NCBI RefSeq assembly: GCF_050920415.1
Contig: NZ_CP169309.1
Origin: Escherichia coli
GTDB taxonomy: Bacteria; Pseudomonadota; Gammaproteobacteria; Enterobacterales; Enterobacteriaceae
Direction: 5' to 3' (one strand)
Length of the DNA stretch: 64,000 bases
This document shows, one piece after another, positions 9,726 through 34,349 of the stretch. How positions within the stretch are numbered: the stretch's first letter is position 1; each line of letters opens with the position of its first letter. The notes under the pieces are model-generated. The model was not told the origin of the DNA. It ran no database searches and worked only from the letters and a program-made list of their open reading frames with translations. The position numbers and the translations under genes were made by a program.

Positions 9726-11795
9726 ATGTCTGAGAAAACTTTTCTGGTGGAAATCGGCACTGAAGAGCTGCCACCAAAAGCACTGCGCAGCCTGGCTGAG
9801 TCCTTTGCTGCGAACTTTACTGCGGAGCTGGATAACGCTGGCCTCGCACACGGCACCGTTCAATGGTTTGCTGCTCCGCGTCGTCTGGCGCTGAAAGTAG
9901 CTAACCTGGCGGAAGCGCAACCGGATCGTGAAATCGAAAAACGCGGCCCGGCAATTGCTCAGGCGTTCGACGCTGAAGGCAAACCGAGCAAAGCGGCAGA
10001 AGGCTGGGCGCGTGGTTGCGGTATTACCGTTGACCAGGCTGAGCGTCTGACTACCGATAAAGGCGAATGGCTGCTGTATCGCGCCCACGTGAAGGGCGAA
10101 AGCACTGAAGCACTGTTGCCGAATATGGTTGCGACTTCGCTGGCGAAACTGCCGATCCCGAAACTGATGCGTTGGGGTGCAAGCGACGTGCACTTCGTGC
10201 GTCCGGTGCACACCGTGACCCTGCTGCTGGGCGACAAAGTTATTCCGGCTACCATTCTGGGCATTCAGTCCGATCGCGTGATTCGCGGCCACCGCTTTAT
10301 GGGCGAGCCGGAATTCACTATCGACAATGCTGATCAGTATCCGGAAATTCTGCGTGAGCGCGGGAAAGTCATCGCCGATTACGAAGAACGTAAGGCGAAG
10401 ATTAAAGCCGATGCCGAAGAAGCGGCGCGTAAGATTGGCGGTAACGCTGACTTAAGCGAAAGCCTGTTGGAAGAAGTCGCTTCGCTGGTGGAATGGCCGG
10501 TTGTGCTGACCGCAAAATTCGAAGAGAAATTCCTCGCGGTGCCGTCTGAAGCACTGGTTTACACCATGAAAGGTGACCAGAAATACTTCCCGGTGTATGC
10601 GAACGACGGCAAACTGCTGCCGAACTTTATCTTCGTTGCCAATATCGAATCGCAAGATCCGCAGCAAATTATCTCTGGTAACGAGAAAGTCGTTCGTCCA
10701 CGTCTGGCGGATGCCGAGTTCTTCTTCAACACCGACCGTAAAAAACGTCTGGAAGATAACCTGCCGCGCCTGCAAACCGTGTTGTTCCAGCAACAGCTGG
10801 GTACACTGCGCGACAAAACTGACCGCATCCAGGCGCTGGCTGGCTGGATTGCTGAACAGATTGGCGCTGACGTTAACCACGCAACCCGTGCGGGCCTGCT
10901 GTCCAAGTGCGACCTGATGACCAACATGGTCTTCGAGTTCACCGACACCCAGGGCGTTATGGGGATGCACTACGCGCGTCACGATGGTGAAGCGGAAGAT
11001 GTCGCAGTGGCGCTGAACGAGCAGTATCAGCCGCGTTTTGCTGGTGATGACCTGCCGTCTAACCCAGTGGCTTGTGCGCTGGCTATTGCTGACAAGATGG
11101 ATACCCTGGCGGGTATCTTCGGTATCGGCCAGCATCCGAAAGGCGACAAAGACCCGTTTGCGTTGCGTCGTGCCGCGCTGGGCGTGCTGCGCATTATCGT
11201 TGAGAAGAACCTCAACCTCGATCTGCAAACACTGACTGAAGAAGCGGCGCGTCTGTACGGTGATAAGCTGACTAACGCCAACGTGGTTGATGACGTTATC
11301 GACTTTATGCTCGGTCGCTTCCGCGCCTGGTATCAGGACGAAGGTTACACCGTTGACACCATCCAGGCGGTACTGGCGCGTCGTCCGACTCGTCCGGCTG
11401 ATTTCGATGCCCGAATGAAAGCGGTATCGCACTTCCGAACCCTGGATGCGGCGGCAGCACTGGCGGCGGCGAATAAGCGTGTATCTAACATTCTGGCGAA
11501 ATCTGACGAAGTGCTGAGCGACCGCGTGAATGCCTCTACTCTGAAAGAGCCGGAAGAAATTAAACTGGCGATGCAGGTTGTGGTGCTACGTGACAAGCTA
11601 GAGCCGTACTTTGCTGAAGGTCGTTACCAGGATGCGCTGGTCGAACTGGCTGAGCTGCGTGAACCGGTTGATGCCTTCTTCGATAAAGTGATGGTCATGG
11701 TTGATGACAAAGAATTGCGAATCAACCGTCTTACCATGCTGGAGAAACTGCGCGAATTATTCCTGCGAGTTGCGGATATTTCGCTGTTGCAGTAA
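9726..11795 (+). CDS. glyS: glycine--tRNA ligase beta subunit
   Basis: 689-aa ORF starting [20 protein letters not shown], 9 bp downstream of glyQ. Confidence 0.97.
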
Positions 11796-11811
11796 TAACG
11801 TCGTTATTAAA

Positions 11812-11838
11812 AAGCCTGCCATCTGGCAGGCTTTTTTA
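11812..11838 (+). terminator. rho-independent terminator of glyQS
   Basis: GCCTGCC-ATCT-GGCAGGC hairpin followed by a TTTTTT run directly after the glyS stop. Confidence 0.7.
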
Positions 11839-12004
11839 TCGCTAAATAATAGAGCAACCTTTAATAATCTTCTGCTGAATAAAGATTGTCTCATATATTA
11901 ATTTTATGAGATTTTTTAGGATTATATCAAAGAGAAGAAAAGAACTTATTAAGCTAGAATAGCCACAGGTGCTTGAGACTGTTTGTCTCAGGTATTCACC
12001 GAAA

Positions 12005-12065
12005 GGCAGACAGAGAAAAGCCCCACCTGACTATAAATCAAAGTGAGGCCCCTCTATGCATAGAC
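12005..12065 (-). ncRNA. sokA: putative SokA antisense RNA of the hokA type I toxin-antitoxin locus
   Basis: Minus-strand candidate promoter (TTGATT, 17-bp spacer, TAACCT) reading antisense across the upstream in-frame ATG of the hokA ORF, followed by an imperfect hairpin plus U-run; ends inferred, not measured. Confidence 0.3.
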
Positions 12066-12115
12066 ACCATAAGGTTAGCCTCTTACTCGTTGGAAATCAA
12101 CACAGGAGGCTGGGA

Positions 12116-12268
12116 ATGCCGCAGAAATATAGATTACTTTCTTTAATAGTGATTTGTTTCACGCTTTTATTTTTCACCTGGATGATAAGAGATTCACTGT
12201 GTGAATTGCATATTAAACAGGAGAATTATGAGCTGGCGGCGTTTTTAGCCTGCAAATTGAAAGAGTAA
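12116..12268 (+). CDS. hokA: Hok-family small toxic membrane peptide HokA
   Basis: 50-aa ORF MPQKYRLLSLIVICFTLLFFTWMIRDSLCELHIKQENYELAAFLACKLKE preceded by Shine-Dalgarno AGGAGG; Hok family signature. Confidence 0.85.
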   Translation: MPQKYRLLSLIVICFTLLFFTWMIRDSLCELHIKQENYELAAFLACKLKE

Positions 12269-12275
12269 GAGTCTT

Positions 12276-12302
12276 CGGCGGGAAGTTATTCCCGCCTTTC
12301 TT
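12276..12302 (+). terminator. rho-independent terminator downstream of hokA
   Basis: GGCGGGAA-GTTA-TTCCCGCC hairpin followed by TTTCTT. Confidence 0.6.
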
Positions 12303-12456
12303 ACGGCGTTGCGCATTCTCATTGCACCCAAATTTATTCTTCACAAAAATAATAATAGATTTTATTACGCGAACGATTATTTATTTCCTGAATAAACAAA
12401 TAAAAAAATCCCCGCCATTTGGCAGGGATCTTAGATTCTGTGCTTTTAAGCAGAGA

Positions 12457-12669
12457 TTACAGGCTGGTTACGTTACCAGCTGCCGGGCCTTTAGCGCCGC
12501 TTTCGATGGTGAAGGACACTTTCTGACCTTCGTCCAGAGATTTGTAACCATCGTTCTGGATAGCAGAGAAGTGTACGAACACGTCTTTAGAACCATCGTC
12601 AGGAGTGATGAAGCCGAAGCCTTTGTCAGCGTTGAACCATTTTACGATACCAGTCATTTTACCGGACAT
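12457..12669 (-). CDS. cspA: major cold-shock protein CspA
   Basis: 70-aa [73 protein letters not shown]; cold-shock domain with RNP motifs. Confidence 0.97.
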
Positions 12670-12828
12670 AGTGTATTACCTTTAATAATTAATTGTGCCT
12701 TTCGGCGATATGGCGTGCTTTACAGATTTTGAAGCGTTAAAGGAAATGCACACTACGAGGGGTATCAACGATAACTCTTGAAGGGACTTGCCTTACTACA
12801 CTGCTTTAATGGTCTGTACGTCAAACCG
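12670..12828 (-). promoter_or_regulatory. long cspA 5' untranslated leader (cold-box containing)
   Basis: About 159 nt between the cspA start codon and a sequence whose reverse complement begins ACGGTTTGACGTACAGACC, matching the known cspA transcript 5' end from memory. Confidence 0.6.
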
Positions 12829-12950
12829 TTGAAGTGCATTAAGCCACGCATTGGTGGGTGATGCAACAATTATTTTTCATATTTATGATTAATCGGTTGG
12901 AAAACGGTCCTGTCATCAGGACCGTAAACAGCAATAAAGTGGATAAAAGT

Positions 12951-13241
12951 CTATTCCATCAACTGCTTACTTAACGCTGGGTTAGCTTGAATCAGACGCA
13001 TCAATTTTAGTTCGGCACTTGAAGGCTTAACGCGTCGGGATTCCCATTCCTTTACCATGGCGACGGTAACGCCCAAAACCCGAGCGAAATCATCGATTTT
13101 TAACCCCGTACCTTTACGTAACTGCTCAATCTCGGTACAGGACGTTGTTCTATGCGTCAGAGTAATCTTCTGCGTTTCATCTTTAAAAACAATCTGTTCC
13201 AGGCTGCTCAACAGCTCATGCATGGGATCTTTATATTCCAT
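12951..13241 (-). CDS. yiaG: HTH (XRE-like) DNA-binding protein YiaG
   Basis: 96-aa ORF with a helix-turn-helix segment (LRKGTGLKIDDFARVLGVTVAMVKEWE). Confidence 0.8.
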   Translation of the reverse strand: MEYKDPMHELLSSLEQIVFKDETQKITLTHRTTSCTEIEQLRKGTGLKIDDFARVLGVTVAMVKEWESRRVKPSSAELKLMRLIQANPALSKQLME

Positions 13242-24025: not shown

Positions 24026-24102
<77 letters not shown>

Positions 24103-24108
24103 AATTCG

Positions 24109-24137
24109 AAAAGCCTGCTCAGCGAGCAGGCTTTTTT
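24109..24137 (+). terminator. rho-independent terminator after tRNA-Pro
   Basis: AGCCTGCTC-AGCG-AGCAGGCT hairpin followed by TTTTTT. Confidence 0.7.
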
Positions 24138-24152
24138 GCATTTGAAGCCCAT

Positions 24153-24270
24153 GAGGATGAGAACCTCCGGGGGCGGGGAGGTTCGACTCGAGCGAAGCGA
24201 GAGAACGTTGCGCCAGCAACGGCCCGCAGGGCGAGCCACGAAGTGGCGAGTAATCCTCTATCACCGACCA
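24153..24270 (+). repeat. tRNA-Pro 3'-end-containing repeat unit 1 (T-arm start, about 63-nt insert, then the last 19 nt of tRNA-Pro)
   Basis: Begins with GGAGGTTCGA (tRNA T-stem) and ends AATCCTCTATCACCGACCA, identical to the proK 3' end; followed by its own terminator at about 24277..24304. Confidence 0.6.
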
Positions 24271-24276
24271 ATTTAG

Positions 24277-24304
24277 AAAAACCAGCCTACGGGCTGGTTT
24301 TTTG
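24277..24304 (+). terminator. rho-independent terminator after repeat unit 1
   Basis: CCAGCC-TACG-GGCTGG hairpin followed by TTTTTT. Confidence 0.6.
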
Positions 24305-24320
24305 CTTTCTGCGGCCTGAA

Positions 24321-24424
24321 GAGGATGAGAACTTCCGGGGGCAGGGAGGTTCGACTCCAGCAAAGCGAGAGAACGTTGTGGCAGCAACGGCCCGCAGTGG
24401 CGAGTAATCCTCTGGCACCGACCA
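24321..24424 (+). repeat. tRNA-Pro 3'-end-containing repeat unit 2 (diverged copy of unit 1 with a 14-nt deletion)
   Basis: About 85 percent identical to unit 1; ends AATCCTCTGGCACCGACCA (two mismatches to the proK 3' end). Confidence 0.6.
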
Positions 24425-24433
24425 AATCTGAAC

Positions 24434-24519
24434 GTAGGCCTGATAAGACGCGTCAGCGCCGCATCAGGCAACGGCACCGCACTTATTGTCGGATGCGGCG
24501 TGAACGCCTTATCTGACCG
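24434..24519. repeat. REP/BIME element (two inverted REP palindromes)
   Basis: GTAGGCCTGATAAGACGCGTCAGCGCCGCATCAGGCA and CGGATGCGGCGTGAACGCCTTATC: canonical REP consensus. Confidence 0.8.
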
Positions 24520-32385: not shown

Positions 32386-32585
32386 ATTTCACTACCAGTC
32401 TGGAGTCAGCCCGGATATGAACTGCAACTATTGCAAATAAAGAAATTAAGCTGGAAGGCATCACGCAATGAGGAAGATTGCCGGGTGCTGACGGTAAAAA
32501 GCAATCGTAAAATCAGCGGCAAGCCGGAAAGGTTCCGGTGAGGCGCAATGTTGCGGGGGCTTAATCCCTGGTGGCATTGGTTGCT

Positions 32586-32654
32586 GGAGAGAGAAAACCC
32601 CCGCACGTTGCAGATATTCACCTGACAACATCACGGGGGCTAATCTTGAACCTA
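32586..32654 (-). ncRNA. rdlD: Rdl antisense RNA, copy 1 (approximate ends)
   Basis: Minus-strand reading gives a GC-stem hairpin (CCCCCG...CGGGGG) followed by UUUUCUCUC; -10-like TATTCT upstream on minus strand; ends inferred from the Rdl family. Confidence 0.45.
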
Positions 32655-32705
32655 GACCACTCAAGAATAGCCGCGAAACGTTGTCATTACAACACAGGCG
32701 GCTAT

Positions 32706-32813
32706 ATGACGCTCGCAGAACTGGGCATGGCCTTCTGGCATGATTTAGCGGCTCCGGTCATTGCTGGCATTCTTGCCAGTCTGATCGTGAACTGGCTGAA
32801 CAAGCGGAAGTAA
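32706..32813 (+). CDS. ldrD: Ldr type I toxin peptide, copy 1 (35 aa)
   Basis: MTLAELGMAFWHDLAAPVIAGILASLIVNWLNKRK; Ldr family small hydrophobic toxin. Confidence 0.85.
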   Translation: MTLAELGMAFWHDLAAPVIAGILASLIVNWLNKRK

Positions 32814-33071
32814 CGTGTCAGACGGGCGTCAGGCTGCCGTAATGGCAATTTGCGCCCGGACCAGGCCGCAGGGATAAAACTCTGCGGCCTTTTTCGTAAG
32901 AAAAATGCAACGGTTGCAAGCGGATAATATTCTGCGGAATGCGCAGCACAGAGTGAAGAAGTGATGGATTCTGGAACAGAAAAACAGTCGTAGAATCAGC
33001 GGCAAGCCGGAAGGGTTCCGGTGAGGCGCAATGTTGCGGGGGCTTTATCCCTGGTGGCATTGGTTGCTGGA

Positions 33072-33140
33072 GAGAGAAAACCCCCGCACGTTGCAGGTAT
33101 GCACCTGACAACATCACGGGGGCCATTCTTGCATCCAAAC
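33072..33140 (-). ncRNA. rdlD: Rdl antisense RNA, copy 2 (approximate ends)
   Basis: Same structure as copy 1; minus-strand promoter-like TTGTAA, 17-bp spacer, TATTCT. Confidence 0.45.
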
Positions 33141-33188
33141 AATACAAGAATAGCCGCGAAACGTTGTCATTACAACAGAGGCGGCTAT

Positions 33189-33296
33189 ATGACGCTCGCA
33201 GAACTGGGCATGGCCTTCTGGCATGATTTAGCGGCTCCGGTCATTGCTGGCATTCTTGCCAGTCTGATCGTGAACTGGCTGAACAAGCGGAAGTAA
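33189..33296 (+). CDS. ldrD: Ldr type I toxin peptide, copy 2 (35 aa)
   Basis: MTLAELGMAFWHDLAAPVIAGILASLIVNWLNKRK. Confidence 0.85.
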   Translation: MTLAELGMAFWHDLAAPVIAGILASLIVNWLNKRK

Positions 33297-33555
33297 CGTG
33301 TCAGACGGGCGTCAGGCTGCCGTAATGGCAATTTGCGCCCGGACCAGGCCGCAGGGATAAAACTCTGCGGCCTTTTTCGTAAGAAAAATGCAACGGTTGC
33401 AAGCGGATAATATTCTGCGGAATGCGCAGCACAGAGTGAAGAAGTGATGGATTTCGACGAACAAAAATGGCCGTAGAATCAGCGGCAAGCCGGAAGGGTT
33501 CCGGTGAGGCGCAATGTTGCGGGGGGCTTTATCCCTGGTGGCATTGGTTGCTGGA

Positions 33556-33624
33556 GAGAGAAAACCCCCGCACGTTGCAGGTATGCACCTGACAACACCA
33601 CGGGGGCCATTCTTGCATCTAGAC
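33556..33624 (-). ncRNA. rdlD: Rdl antisense RNA, copy 3 (approximate ends)
   Basis: Same structure as copies 1-2. Confidence 0.45.
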
Positions 33625-33672
33625 CATTCAAGAATAGCCGCGAAACGTTGTCATTACAACAGAGGCGGCTAT

Positions 33673-33780
33673 ATGACGCTCGCAGAGCTGGGCATGGCCT
33701 TCTGGCATGATTTAGCGGCTCCGGTCATTGCTGGCATTCTTGCCAGCATGATCGTGAACTGGCTGAACAAGCGGAAGTAA
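33673..33780 (+). CDS. ldrD: Ldr type I toxin peptide, copy 3 (35 aa)
   Basis: MTLAELGMAFWHDLAAPVIAGILASMIVNWLNKRK (L26M relative to copies 1-2). Confidence 0.85.
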   Translation: MTLAELGMAFWHDLAAPVIAGILASMIVNWLNKRK

Positions 33781-34038
33781 CGTGTCAGACGGGCGTCAGG
33801 CTGCCGTAATGGCAATTTGCGCCCGGATCAGGCCGCAGGGATAAAACTCTGCGGCCTTTTTCGTAAGAAAAATGCAACGGTTGCAAGCGGATAATATTCT
33901 GCGGAATGCGCAGCACAGAGTGAAGAAGTGACGGATTCCGGAACAGAAAAACAGTCGTAGAATTAGCGGCAAGCCGGAAGGGTTCCGGTGAGGCGCAATG
34001 TTGCGGGGGCTTTATCCCTGGTGGCATTGGTTGCTGGA

Positions 34039-34107
34039 GAGAGAAAACCCCCGCACGTTGCAGGTATGCACCTGACAACATCACGGGGGCTAATCTTGAA
34101 CCCAAAC
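34039..34107 (-). ncRNA. rdlD: Rdl antisense RNA, copy 4 (approximate ends)
   Basis: Same structure as copies 1-3. Confidence 0.45.
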
Positions 34108-34155
34108 AACTCAAGAATAGCCGCGAAACGTTGTCATTACAACAGAGGCGGCTAT

Positions 34156-34263
34156 ATGACGCTCGCAGAACTGGGCATGGCCTTCTGGCATGATTTAGCG
34201 GCTCCGGTCATTGCTGGCATTCTTGCCAGTCTGATCGTGAACTCGCTGAATAAGTGGAAGTAA
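34156..34263 (+). CDS. ldrD: Ldr type I toxin peptide, copy 4 (35 aa, variant C-terminus)
   Basis: MTLAELGMAFWHDLAAPVIAGILASLIVNSLNKWK (W30S and R34W relative to copies 1-2). Confidence 0.8.
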   Translation: MTLAELGMAFWHDLAAPVIAGILASLIVNSLNKWK

Positions 34264-34349
34264 CGTGTCATGCGGGCGTCAGGCTGCCGTAATGGCAATT
34301 TGCGCCCGGATCAGGCCGCAGGGGTGAAACTCTGCGGCCTTTTTCGTTC

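Follow-up and report, generated by a model that had tools for sequence, protein, structure and literature searches.

The chromosomal hok loci of Escherichia coli K-12 are regarded in the literature as inactivated. A preliminary description of the DNA studied here, a stretch of 64,000 nucleotides from an E. coli genome (the window), referred to this view when it pointed to a hokA/sokA locus with no insertion element between glyS and cspA. The locus raises the question of whether all parts of a type I toxin-antitoxin module are present, how it relates to other alleles at the same site, and whether it could be functional. As the best explanation overall, the region from approximately 11955 to 12335 is very probably a complete, insertion-free hokA/mokA/sokA module of the hok/sok family.

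The hokA locus between glyS and cspA

In the window, glyS (9726-11795) closes with a TAA stop codon, and a terminator hairpin lies just behind it at about 11810-11835. A sub-threshold Rfam match to STnc370 also lies over this terminator and mostly reflects similarity to the terminator hairpin. On the other side of the interval, cspA (12457-12669) is encoded on the minus strand, convergent with hokA, and together with its thermoregulator RNA spans 12402-12830. The gene order glyS-hokA-cspA is common to K-12, E. coli C and other genera. Collinearity with the window extends in E. coli MFDS1022581, the nearest genome, over the first 33 kb with three mismatches, up to a copy-number difference in the ldr array, and PGAP names hokA at the same coordinates in that genome (WP_001135731.1).

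The toxin gene hokA occupies 12116-12268 on the plus strand and consists of 50 codons, starting 320 nt after the glyS stop codon. Its Shine-Dalgarno (SD) sequence, AGGAGG (12104-12109), lies 6 nt 5' of the ATG. The product matches Pfam HOK_GEF (PF01848) with E = 7.5e-22 and the NCBIfam HokA equivalog with 129.5 bits (cut-off 89), in agreement with the complete gene, strong SD and distance of about 320 bp from glyS that had been described. Both conserved cysteines, Cys29 and Cys46, are present in the translation; because they are already encoded, HokA needs no RNA editing. A published paper describes a role for the two Hok cysteines and toxicity of HokA upon overexpression.

A second reading frame from the open reading frame list, mokA (12056-12268, plus strand), starts with an ATG at 12056, 60 nt upstream of and in frame with hokA, and reads as a 70-codon, N-terminally extended HokA. 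Its SD, GAGG (12045-12048), is spaced 7 nt from the ATG, as in plasmid R1, and the 60-nt in-frame offset is retained in 13 of 14 cross-genus loci. By analogy with R1, translation of mokA and hokA would be coupled. The two systems differ in that the R1 hok AUG lies one base outside the mok frame according to the published codon numbering. An antisense 23-codon YsaE-like open reading frame was also considered as part of the module and rejected, because E. coli C and several genera lack its start codon or have the frame broken.

The non-coding part of the locus is likewise recognised by family models. On the plus strand, 11967-12118 scores 112.8 bits with the Rfam model RF01794 ("sok antitoxin, CssrC"), whose gathering score is 59. 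As this model stops at the hokA AUG, it describes the hokA mRNA leader, that is, the complement of SokA, and the match therefore supports a conserved leader rather than the transcribed strand. Judged by sequence, the locus belongs to the hok/sok family in every respect considered.

Regulatory elements and predicted folding of the RNAs

Element definitions for the R1 hok/sok (parB) locus were taken from the literature, and the window was aligned to an R1-type hok/sok locus. The two share the order and spacing of the -10 hexamer, tac, leader hairpin, ucb, mok SD (GAGGC), dcb, antisense promoter, hok SD, 3' stem-loop and fbi. The leader in the window is 18 nt shorter than that of R1, and the toxin-coding sequences align with many differences.

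A putative -10 hexamer for hokA, TAGAAT, lies at 11955-11960 on the plus strand, 6 nt 5' of the Rfam leader match, and aligns with the R1-type TATGAT; this promoter has no recognisable -35. On the minus strand, a putative sokA promoter (12100..12072) consists of a -35 TTGATT (12100..12095), a 17-bp spacer and a -10 TAACCT (12077..12072); the R1 Sok promoter (TTGCGC-17-TATCCT) is placed and spaced in the same way. Across genera, the sokA -10 varies only at positions 3-5, which are the least critical (TAACCT, TACCTT, TACTCT, TACCCT), and AATCAA is nearly invariant at this promoter. A consensus promoter scan missed both the hokA and the sokA promoters and returned two promoter-like matches in the interval, compared with 1.9 expected from shuffled sequences; with the scan at chance level, its outcome was counted neither for nor against the promoters. 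By consensus both would be weak, that of hokA without a -35 and that of sokA with a -10 matching at three of six positions. Positional homology to R1 together with cross-genus conservation argues for the putative sokA promoter, the antisense promoter-like element of the preliminary description.

By analogy with R1 hok mRNA, the full-length mokA-hokA mRNA would span 11967-12335 on the plus strand (about 365 nt), with its 5' end at 11967 or 11968 and its 3' end in a U-rich tract just past fbi. At its 5' end lies tac, the translational activator (AGGTGCTTGAGA, 11967-11978; shown as (A)GGTGCTTGAGA), which aligns with R1 GGCGCTTGAG. It is followed by a 5' leader hairpin (11979-12013) with a 10-bp stem formed by 11979-11988 and 12004-12013; this hairpin appeared in every fold and is kept across genera with G-U/A-U/C-G variation. 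The upstream complementary box ucb, the mokA anti-SD (AAGCCCCACCTGA, 12018-12030), contains AGCCCC, identical to the R1 anti-SD A70-C75. The downstream complementary box dcb (GCCTCTTACTC, 12078-12088) carries GCCTC, complementary to the mokA SD GAGGC, and AGCCTCTTAC is identical to R1.

Two further elements lie downstream of the hokA stop codon, all elements named so far and these two being on the plus strand except for the sokA promoter. One is a G+C-rich stem-loop (GGCGGGAAGTTATTCCCGCC, 12277-12296) with an 8-bp stem followed by TTTCTT, a terminator-like match; two terminator-like sites were found, compared with 0.4 expected from shuffles. The terminator of the preliminary description was therefore present as a hairpin, but it probably does not mark the end of the locus: its counterpart in R1 is the final stem-loop of the truncated hok mRNA, and by that analogy it would form the protective 3' end of the processed mRNA. 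The other is the fold-back inhibitory element fbi (TCTCATTGCACCC, 12317-12329). The interval 11796-12302 given earlier thus encloses hokA and sokA but stops short of fbi.

Folding of the full-length RNA supports these assignments. RNAs of 369-379 nt fold at -135.2 kcal/mol (z = -7.6 relative to dinucleotide shuffles) with pairing between the 5' and 3' ends. In the minimum free energy (MFE) structure, positions 11968-11978 of tac pair with 12317-12328 of fbi, ucb pairs with the mokA SD region (12038-12049), the mokA AUG with the 3' UTR, and dcb with 12263-12271 around the hokA stop codon, and a 16-bp helix formed with 12236-12251 sequesters the hokA SD and AUG. This corresponds to the closed form. 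When the RNA is cut at 12300 and so loses its 3' end, the MFE structure shifts to a stem in which tac pairs with ucb. For this truncated RNA, the open form with both tac/ucb and mokA SD/dcb fully established lies 2.3 kcal/mol above the MFE structure, in which GAGG is still partly paired; forcing the open form on the full-length RNA costs 14.8 kcal/mol. In silico, these folds reproduce the closed-to-open switch of R1.

RNAalifold applied to 14 loci independently recovered the tac/fbi, ucb/mokA SD, dcb/stop region and hokA SD/coding region pairings as well as the 3' hairpin. In this alignment, 97.4% of pair cells hold standard pairs, compared with about 40% when partners are slid, and for the tac/fbi helix 98.6% of cells are computed to be paired. 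Compensatory double changes were seen at only 6 of 94 pairs, in the hokA SD helix and in the 3' hairpin (GC/AU in the latter), and covariation was accordingly dropped as strong structural proof. With sequences this conserved, covariation is sparse, and it is conservation and the slid-partner control that carry the structural argument.

SokA is predicted as an antisense RNA of about 56 nt on the minus strand (12066-12010) that lies over the mokA start. Its 5' end would be set by the position of the -10, and its 3' end is indicated by the K-12 sokA pseudogene remnant (3722077-3722111), which maps to 12044..12010 of the window. The predicted fold consists of an unpaired 5' tail, complementary to the region around the mokA start, and a long terminator hairpin, followed by the U-run CUUUUCUCU, the same shape as R1-type Sok. 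A 52-bp target given in the literature for hokA of E. coli C is in keeping with the predicted length of SokA. In the models, both the closed/open logic and the shape of Sok are thus shared between R1 and the window.

Alleles and conservation of the locus

No IS element lies between glyS and cspA in the window. When the 801-bp stretch 11700-12500 was used as a query, it matched 5,425 of 5,426 complete E. coli genomes and aligned end to end with 2,830 of them, so that the interval described as insertion-free is uninterrupted in 52% of the 5,426. The IS-free form is the majority state of the locus in E. coli. Allele frequencies from an 85-nt query were discarded as uninterpretable, since partial matches to IS-disrupted alleles enter the top identity bin.

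As stated in the preliminary description, MG1655 carries IS150 (insJK, 1,443 bp) between glyS and hokA. Comparison with the window revealed that this is not a simple insertion: positions 12045-12083 (39 bp) are replaced by IS150. The bases absent from K-12 comprise the mokA SD and ATG, the sokA -10 and transcription start, the 5' half of SokA and the start of dcb, and because they are missing, mokA and sokA (b4647 and b4614) are annotated as pseudogenes in RefSeq K-12. At the same position, K-12 hokA (b4455) has a coding sequence and 3' UTR 98% identical to those of the window and the same AGGAGG SD, with S instead of N at HokA residue 38. The hokA promoter, tac and ucb are parted from the toxin gene by IS150 in K-12, whereas they are contiguous with it in the window. 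With a 39-bp loss on top of IS150, K-12 is atypical.

The K-12 junction was found in 1,644 of the 5,426 genomes. A second, independent IS150 junction, present in 912, has the opposite orientation; the insertion is clean and has duplicated 3 bp (AAG at 12041-12043). In a third event, IS150 is inserted after 12045 and accompanied by IS1. Such disrupted alleles other than that of K-12 (e.g. CFSAN061768, strain 98202) have the same locus and flanks as the window and go back to independent IS150 events. These three junction types indicate that IS150 struck a 42-bp leader stretch (12043-12084) at least three times; altogether, about 47% of E. coli genomes are disrupted by IS150. A published survey has described hotspots of mobile-element insertion adjoining hok genes in E. 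coli. In the window, the leader is contiguous across 12041-12084, and none of the 14 aligned loci from other genera and Escherichia has an IS element there. The IS-free form is the ancestral state, which was lost to IS150 in K-12 and in about 47% of E. coli genomes.

Insertion-free hokA has been seen before. According to papers that cite Pedersen and Gerdes (1999, Mol Microbiol 32:1090), that study characterised the IS-free hokA/sokA locus of E. coli C and found K-12 hokA to be inactivated by an IS element. An IS-free hokA was also noted in the AIEC strain NRG857c. As the IS-free state is both the majority in E. coli and already described, the novelty implied by the preliminary description was overstated: the locus is an already known, common, insertion-free form of hokA/sokA, described since 1999. 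The E. coli C locus lies at the same glyS-hokA-cspA site, with 322 nt between glyS and hokA, and has the same elements. Its leader (11968-12049), dcb and fbi are identical to those of the window. Inside the transcript, the two alleles differ by about 15 substitutions or indels, among them a linked set of six SNPs at 12050-12063, which falls in the 5' tail of SokA and in codons 2-3 of mokA, and changes of three HokA residues; E. coli C has G at 11967, the SD AGGGGG and a 1-nt deletion in the 3' UTR, whereas the window has A at 11967 and AGGAGG.

To what extent the window allele carries lesions of its own was judged against the cross-genus consensus and other E. coli alleles, and no inactivating lesion was found in this comparison. 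Nine IS-free E. coli alleles show no variation in the leader (11968-12049), in dcb and the sokA promoter, or in the 3' stem and fbi. The hokA SD of the window, AGGAGG, equals the cross-genus consensus, whereas AGGGGG is found in seven of the other eight E. coli alleles compared; the window also carries the consensus at HokA N38 and in the SokA-tail haplotype. In the regulatory elements, where an inactivating point mutation would have refuted the preliminary description, a single oddity stands out: tac begins with A at 11967 in the window, whereas G is found in each of the 13 cross-genus loci and in the other eight E. coli alleles. The exact 60-mer around this position occurs in four of 4,821 genomes. 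The A removes the terminal G-C pair of the tac/fbi helix, with a predicted loss of 4 kcal/mol and an unchanged architecture. As +1 of R1 aligns with 11968, 11967 may be position -1.

Beyond E. coli, a HokA-based scan of one genome per species identified 41 loci. hokA directly follows glyS, usually before cspA, in Escherichia, Pseudocitrobacter, Klebsiella oxytoca, K. michiganensis, Kluyvera, Citrobacter sedlakii and Phytobacter (for E. albertii, the contig gives the cspA side only). Among 14 syntenic loci from six or more genera, mean pairwise identity was 100% for the -10 hexamer, 91% for the leader from tac to ucb and 89% for the segment with the sokA promoter and dcb, compared with 66% at hokA third codon positions and 42-49% in the immediate flanks; for the sequence flanking the -10 hexamer, the figure is 42-46%. 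hokA itself has a dN/dS of about 0.15 across genera, with dS near 1. Broken copies also occur: that of Escherichia sp. E1V33 is frameshifted, that of Kluyvera genomosp. 3 stops prematurely and that of K. sichuanensis carries an insertion. Synteny in at least six genera, a leader conserved at 91% when third positions stand at 66%, and the dN/dS of about 0.15 together indicate that the module is under purifying selection. As judged from these sequences, it has been kept by selection at an old chromosomal site and is vertically inherited, unlike the plasmid-borne R1 locus.

Possible activity of the window allele

With high confidence, the sequence can be read as that of an intact module and a member of the hok/sok family. 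The suggestion that it could be functional is reasonable, since all elements are intact, no lesion was found relative to the cross-genus consensus, and the module is under purifying selection. If it operates like R1, the weak promoter would give rise to a stable mRNA, about 365 nt long and translationally inert. Its 3' end would slowly be trimmed as far as the stem-loop at 12277-12296, with loss of fbi, upon which tac would pair with ucb and free the mokA SD and the SokA target. Abundant, unstable SokA would bind the freed target and lead to cleavage by RNase III. Upon loss of SokA, mokA would be translated and hokA with it through coupling, and HokA would damage the inner membrane. Whether removal of SokA would in fact cause the window allele to kill or arrest cells is, in our estimate, an evenly balanced matter.

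It is quite conceivable that the module is intact in sequence and silent in phenotype, like that of E. coli C: its RNAs would be made and no killing would follow when SokA is lost. R1 mediates post-segregational killing, whereas E. coli C hokA, the only IS-free hokA locus tested experimentally, reportedly does not; papers citing Pedersen and Gerdes (1999) report neither post-segregational killing nor activation by rifampicin for it, and likewise for K-12 hokB and ECOR24 hokC. The predicted folds would fit such behaviour, as GAGG remains partly paired in the MFE structure of the truncated RNA and the fully open form is 2.3 kcal/mol higher. Silence might then plausibly stem from inefficient processing, from poor mokA translation or coupling, or from a SokA that is too stable, and selection could perhaps be acting on a role other than killing, such as growth arrest under stress, phage defence or anti-addiction. 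The negative result for E. coli C is, however, not directly transferable to the window allele because of the roughly 15 transcript differences between them, which include the SD, the SokA-tail haplotype and the 1-nt deletion in the 3' UTR. Strong cross-genus purifying selection on toxin, leader and antisense promoter also speaks against silence, and recurrent disruption by IS150 in 47% of genomes, along with the published IS hotspots next to hok genes, would be expected if intact loci were costly.

Other readings carry less weight. A lineage-specific point mutation that subtly inactivates or deregulates the locus is improbable; the candidate is the G-to-A change at 11967, which is conspicuous for its rarity (the 60-mer in four of 4,821 genomes, against G in 13 cross-genus loci and eight other E. 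coli alleles) and for the 4 kcal/mol that the full-length fold is predicted to lose, and positions G4, C5 and T6 of R1 tac are essential for toxicity according to the literature. Those loss-of-function positions, however, correspond to 11971-11973, which are intact in the window, whereas 11967 forms the terminal pair of the helix and may even lie just ahead of the transcript, at -1. Neither the overall fold nor the tac/ucb alternative changes, and all other elements, including the hokA SD and N38, match the cross-genus consensus. That an AT-rich spacer has produced the reading frame, hairpin and promoter-like sites by chance has a negligible likelihood: only the number of promoter-like matches, two against 1.9 in shuffles, would fit it, and it is already refuted by family E-values of 1e-22 to 1e-38, the Rfam score of 112.8 bits, and cross-genus synteny and conservation.

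It is an unlikely possibility that intact hokA/sokA alleles of this kind are active and costly in nature and that the window allele is more active than that of E. coli C. This would jointly explain why IS150 struck at least three times and disrupted about 47% of genomes and why purifying selection is seen in at least six genera. If the window allele is indeed the more active one, this could be due to the ancestral SokA-target haplotype, the consensus AGGAGG SD and the rare base, which is predicted to make the tac/fbi clamp 4 kcal/mol weaker.

As hokA is already named by annotation pipelines, the locus matters little on its own. Of wider relevance is that the non-coding leader of hokA is more conserved than synonymous sites across several genera of Enterobacteriaceae. 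The statement that chromosomal hok loci are inactive has been drawn mainly from K-12 and a few cloned alleles, and should not be generalised without testing natural alleles.

Other features in and beside the glyS–hokA–cspA interval

On the glyS side of hokA, a full-length but sub-threshold match to STnc370, a Salmonella candidate sRNA in Rfam, was found on the minus strand at 11803-11869. It scored 46.3 bits, below the gathering score of 54, and it overlies the bidirectional glyS terminator, whose hairpin supplies most of that score. A promoter-like site (TTGATA, 18 bp, TAAAAT) is located upstream of the match on the same strand (11930..11901).

At the opposite end of the locus, a 23-codon ORF homologous to K-12 YsaE (b4793) runs antisense to the hokA 3' end (12245-12316, minus strand). 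It is labelled as a hypothetical protein in the annotation of the nearest genome, E. coli MFDS1022581. As its start codon or reading frame has been lost in E. coli C, a strain with an IS-free hokA, and in several other genera, the ORF is only weakly conserved at the protein level. In some E. coli strains the hokA–cspA spacer contains an additional ∼450 bp, which in E. coli Survcare321 spans 1645-2094 of the locus and corresponds to ∼12343-12398 of the window. The window lacks this segment, whose ORF has a cysteine-rich tail and is annotated as a membrane protein insertion efficiency factor of the YidD family. Further downstream, the 96-aa HTH_3 protein YiaG is encoded on the minus strand (12951-13241); its match to the MqsA antitoxin domain is weak (E = 1.2e-5; 25.8 bits, under the cut-off of 30), and no toxin partner adjoining yiaG was evident.

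Repeats downstream of tRNA-Pro and the ldr/rdl array

In the region 24026-24518, two RtT-like repeats (24137-24270 and 24304-24424) come after tRNA-Pro, with a REP-derived naRNA4 match on the minus strand (24437-24518) behind them. The RtT matches are described as 'processed from tyrT' in the nearest-genome annotation, yet in the window they are located downstream of proK.

Between yhjV and bcsG, the type I toxin-antitoxin system ldr/rdl forms a tandem array of four units (32497-34347) with a period of 483 bp and 3.8 copies. The ldr ORFs, each of 35 codons, are at 32706, 33189, 33673 and 34156, and rdlD matches are on the minus strand at 32592-32657, 33075-33140, 33559-33624 and 34042-34107. 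The fourth ldr copy has an altered C-terminus (…NSLNKWK). At this site only one ldrD is present in K-12-like strains and in E. coli C; MFDS1022581 has five copies.

Insertions and sequence variants in the hokA leader

IS150 disrupts the hokA locus in 1,644 + 912 of 5,426 complete E. coli genomes (∼47%). In the leader, at least three separate IS150 insertions were observed inside 42 bp in other strains (loci L002, L003 and L004; window positions 12041-12084). The K-12 event additionally removed 39 bp; a published tally of IS elements lists a single IS150 in K-12, and this sole copy is the one at hokA.

In the window itself, the first base of the 5' element tac (11967) shows a rare G-to-A change, and the exact 60-mer around it was found in 4 of 4,821 genomes. 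Folding predicts that this change weakens the tac/fbi clamp by ∼4 kcal/mol.

Two haplotypes were also observed among E. coli at 12050-12063, covering the 5' tail of SokA together with codons 2-3 of mokA. They are separated by six completely linked SNPs across 14 bp: the window carries CCCCTCTATGCATAGAC, and E. coli C is among the strains with CTACCCTATGCCTGAAC. The remainder of the ∼150-nt leader is invariant. The cross-genus consensus agrees with the window haplotype. This split could have arisen by gene conversion over a short tract, or it could mean that the specificity of antisense recognition has diverged.
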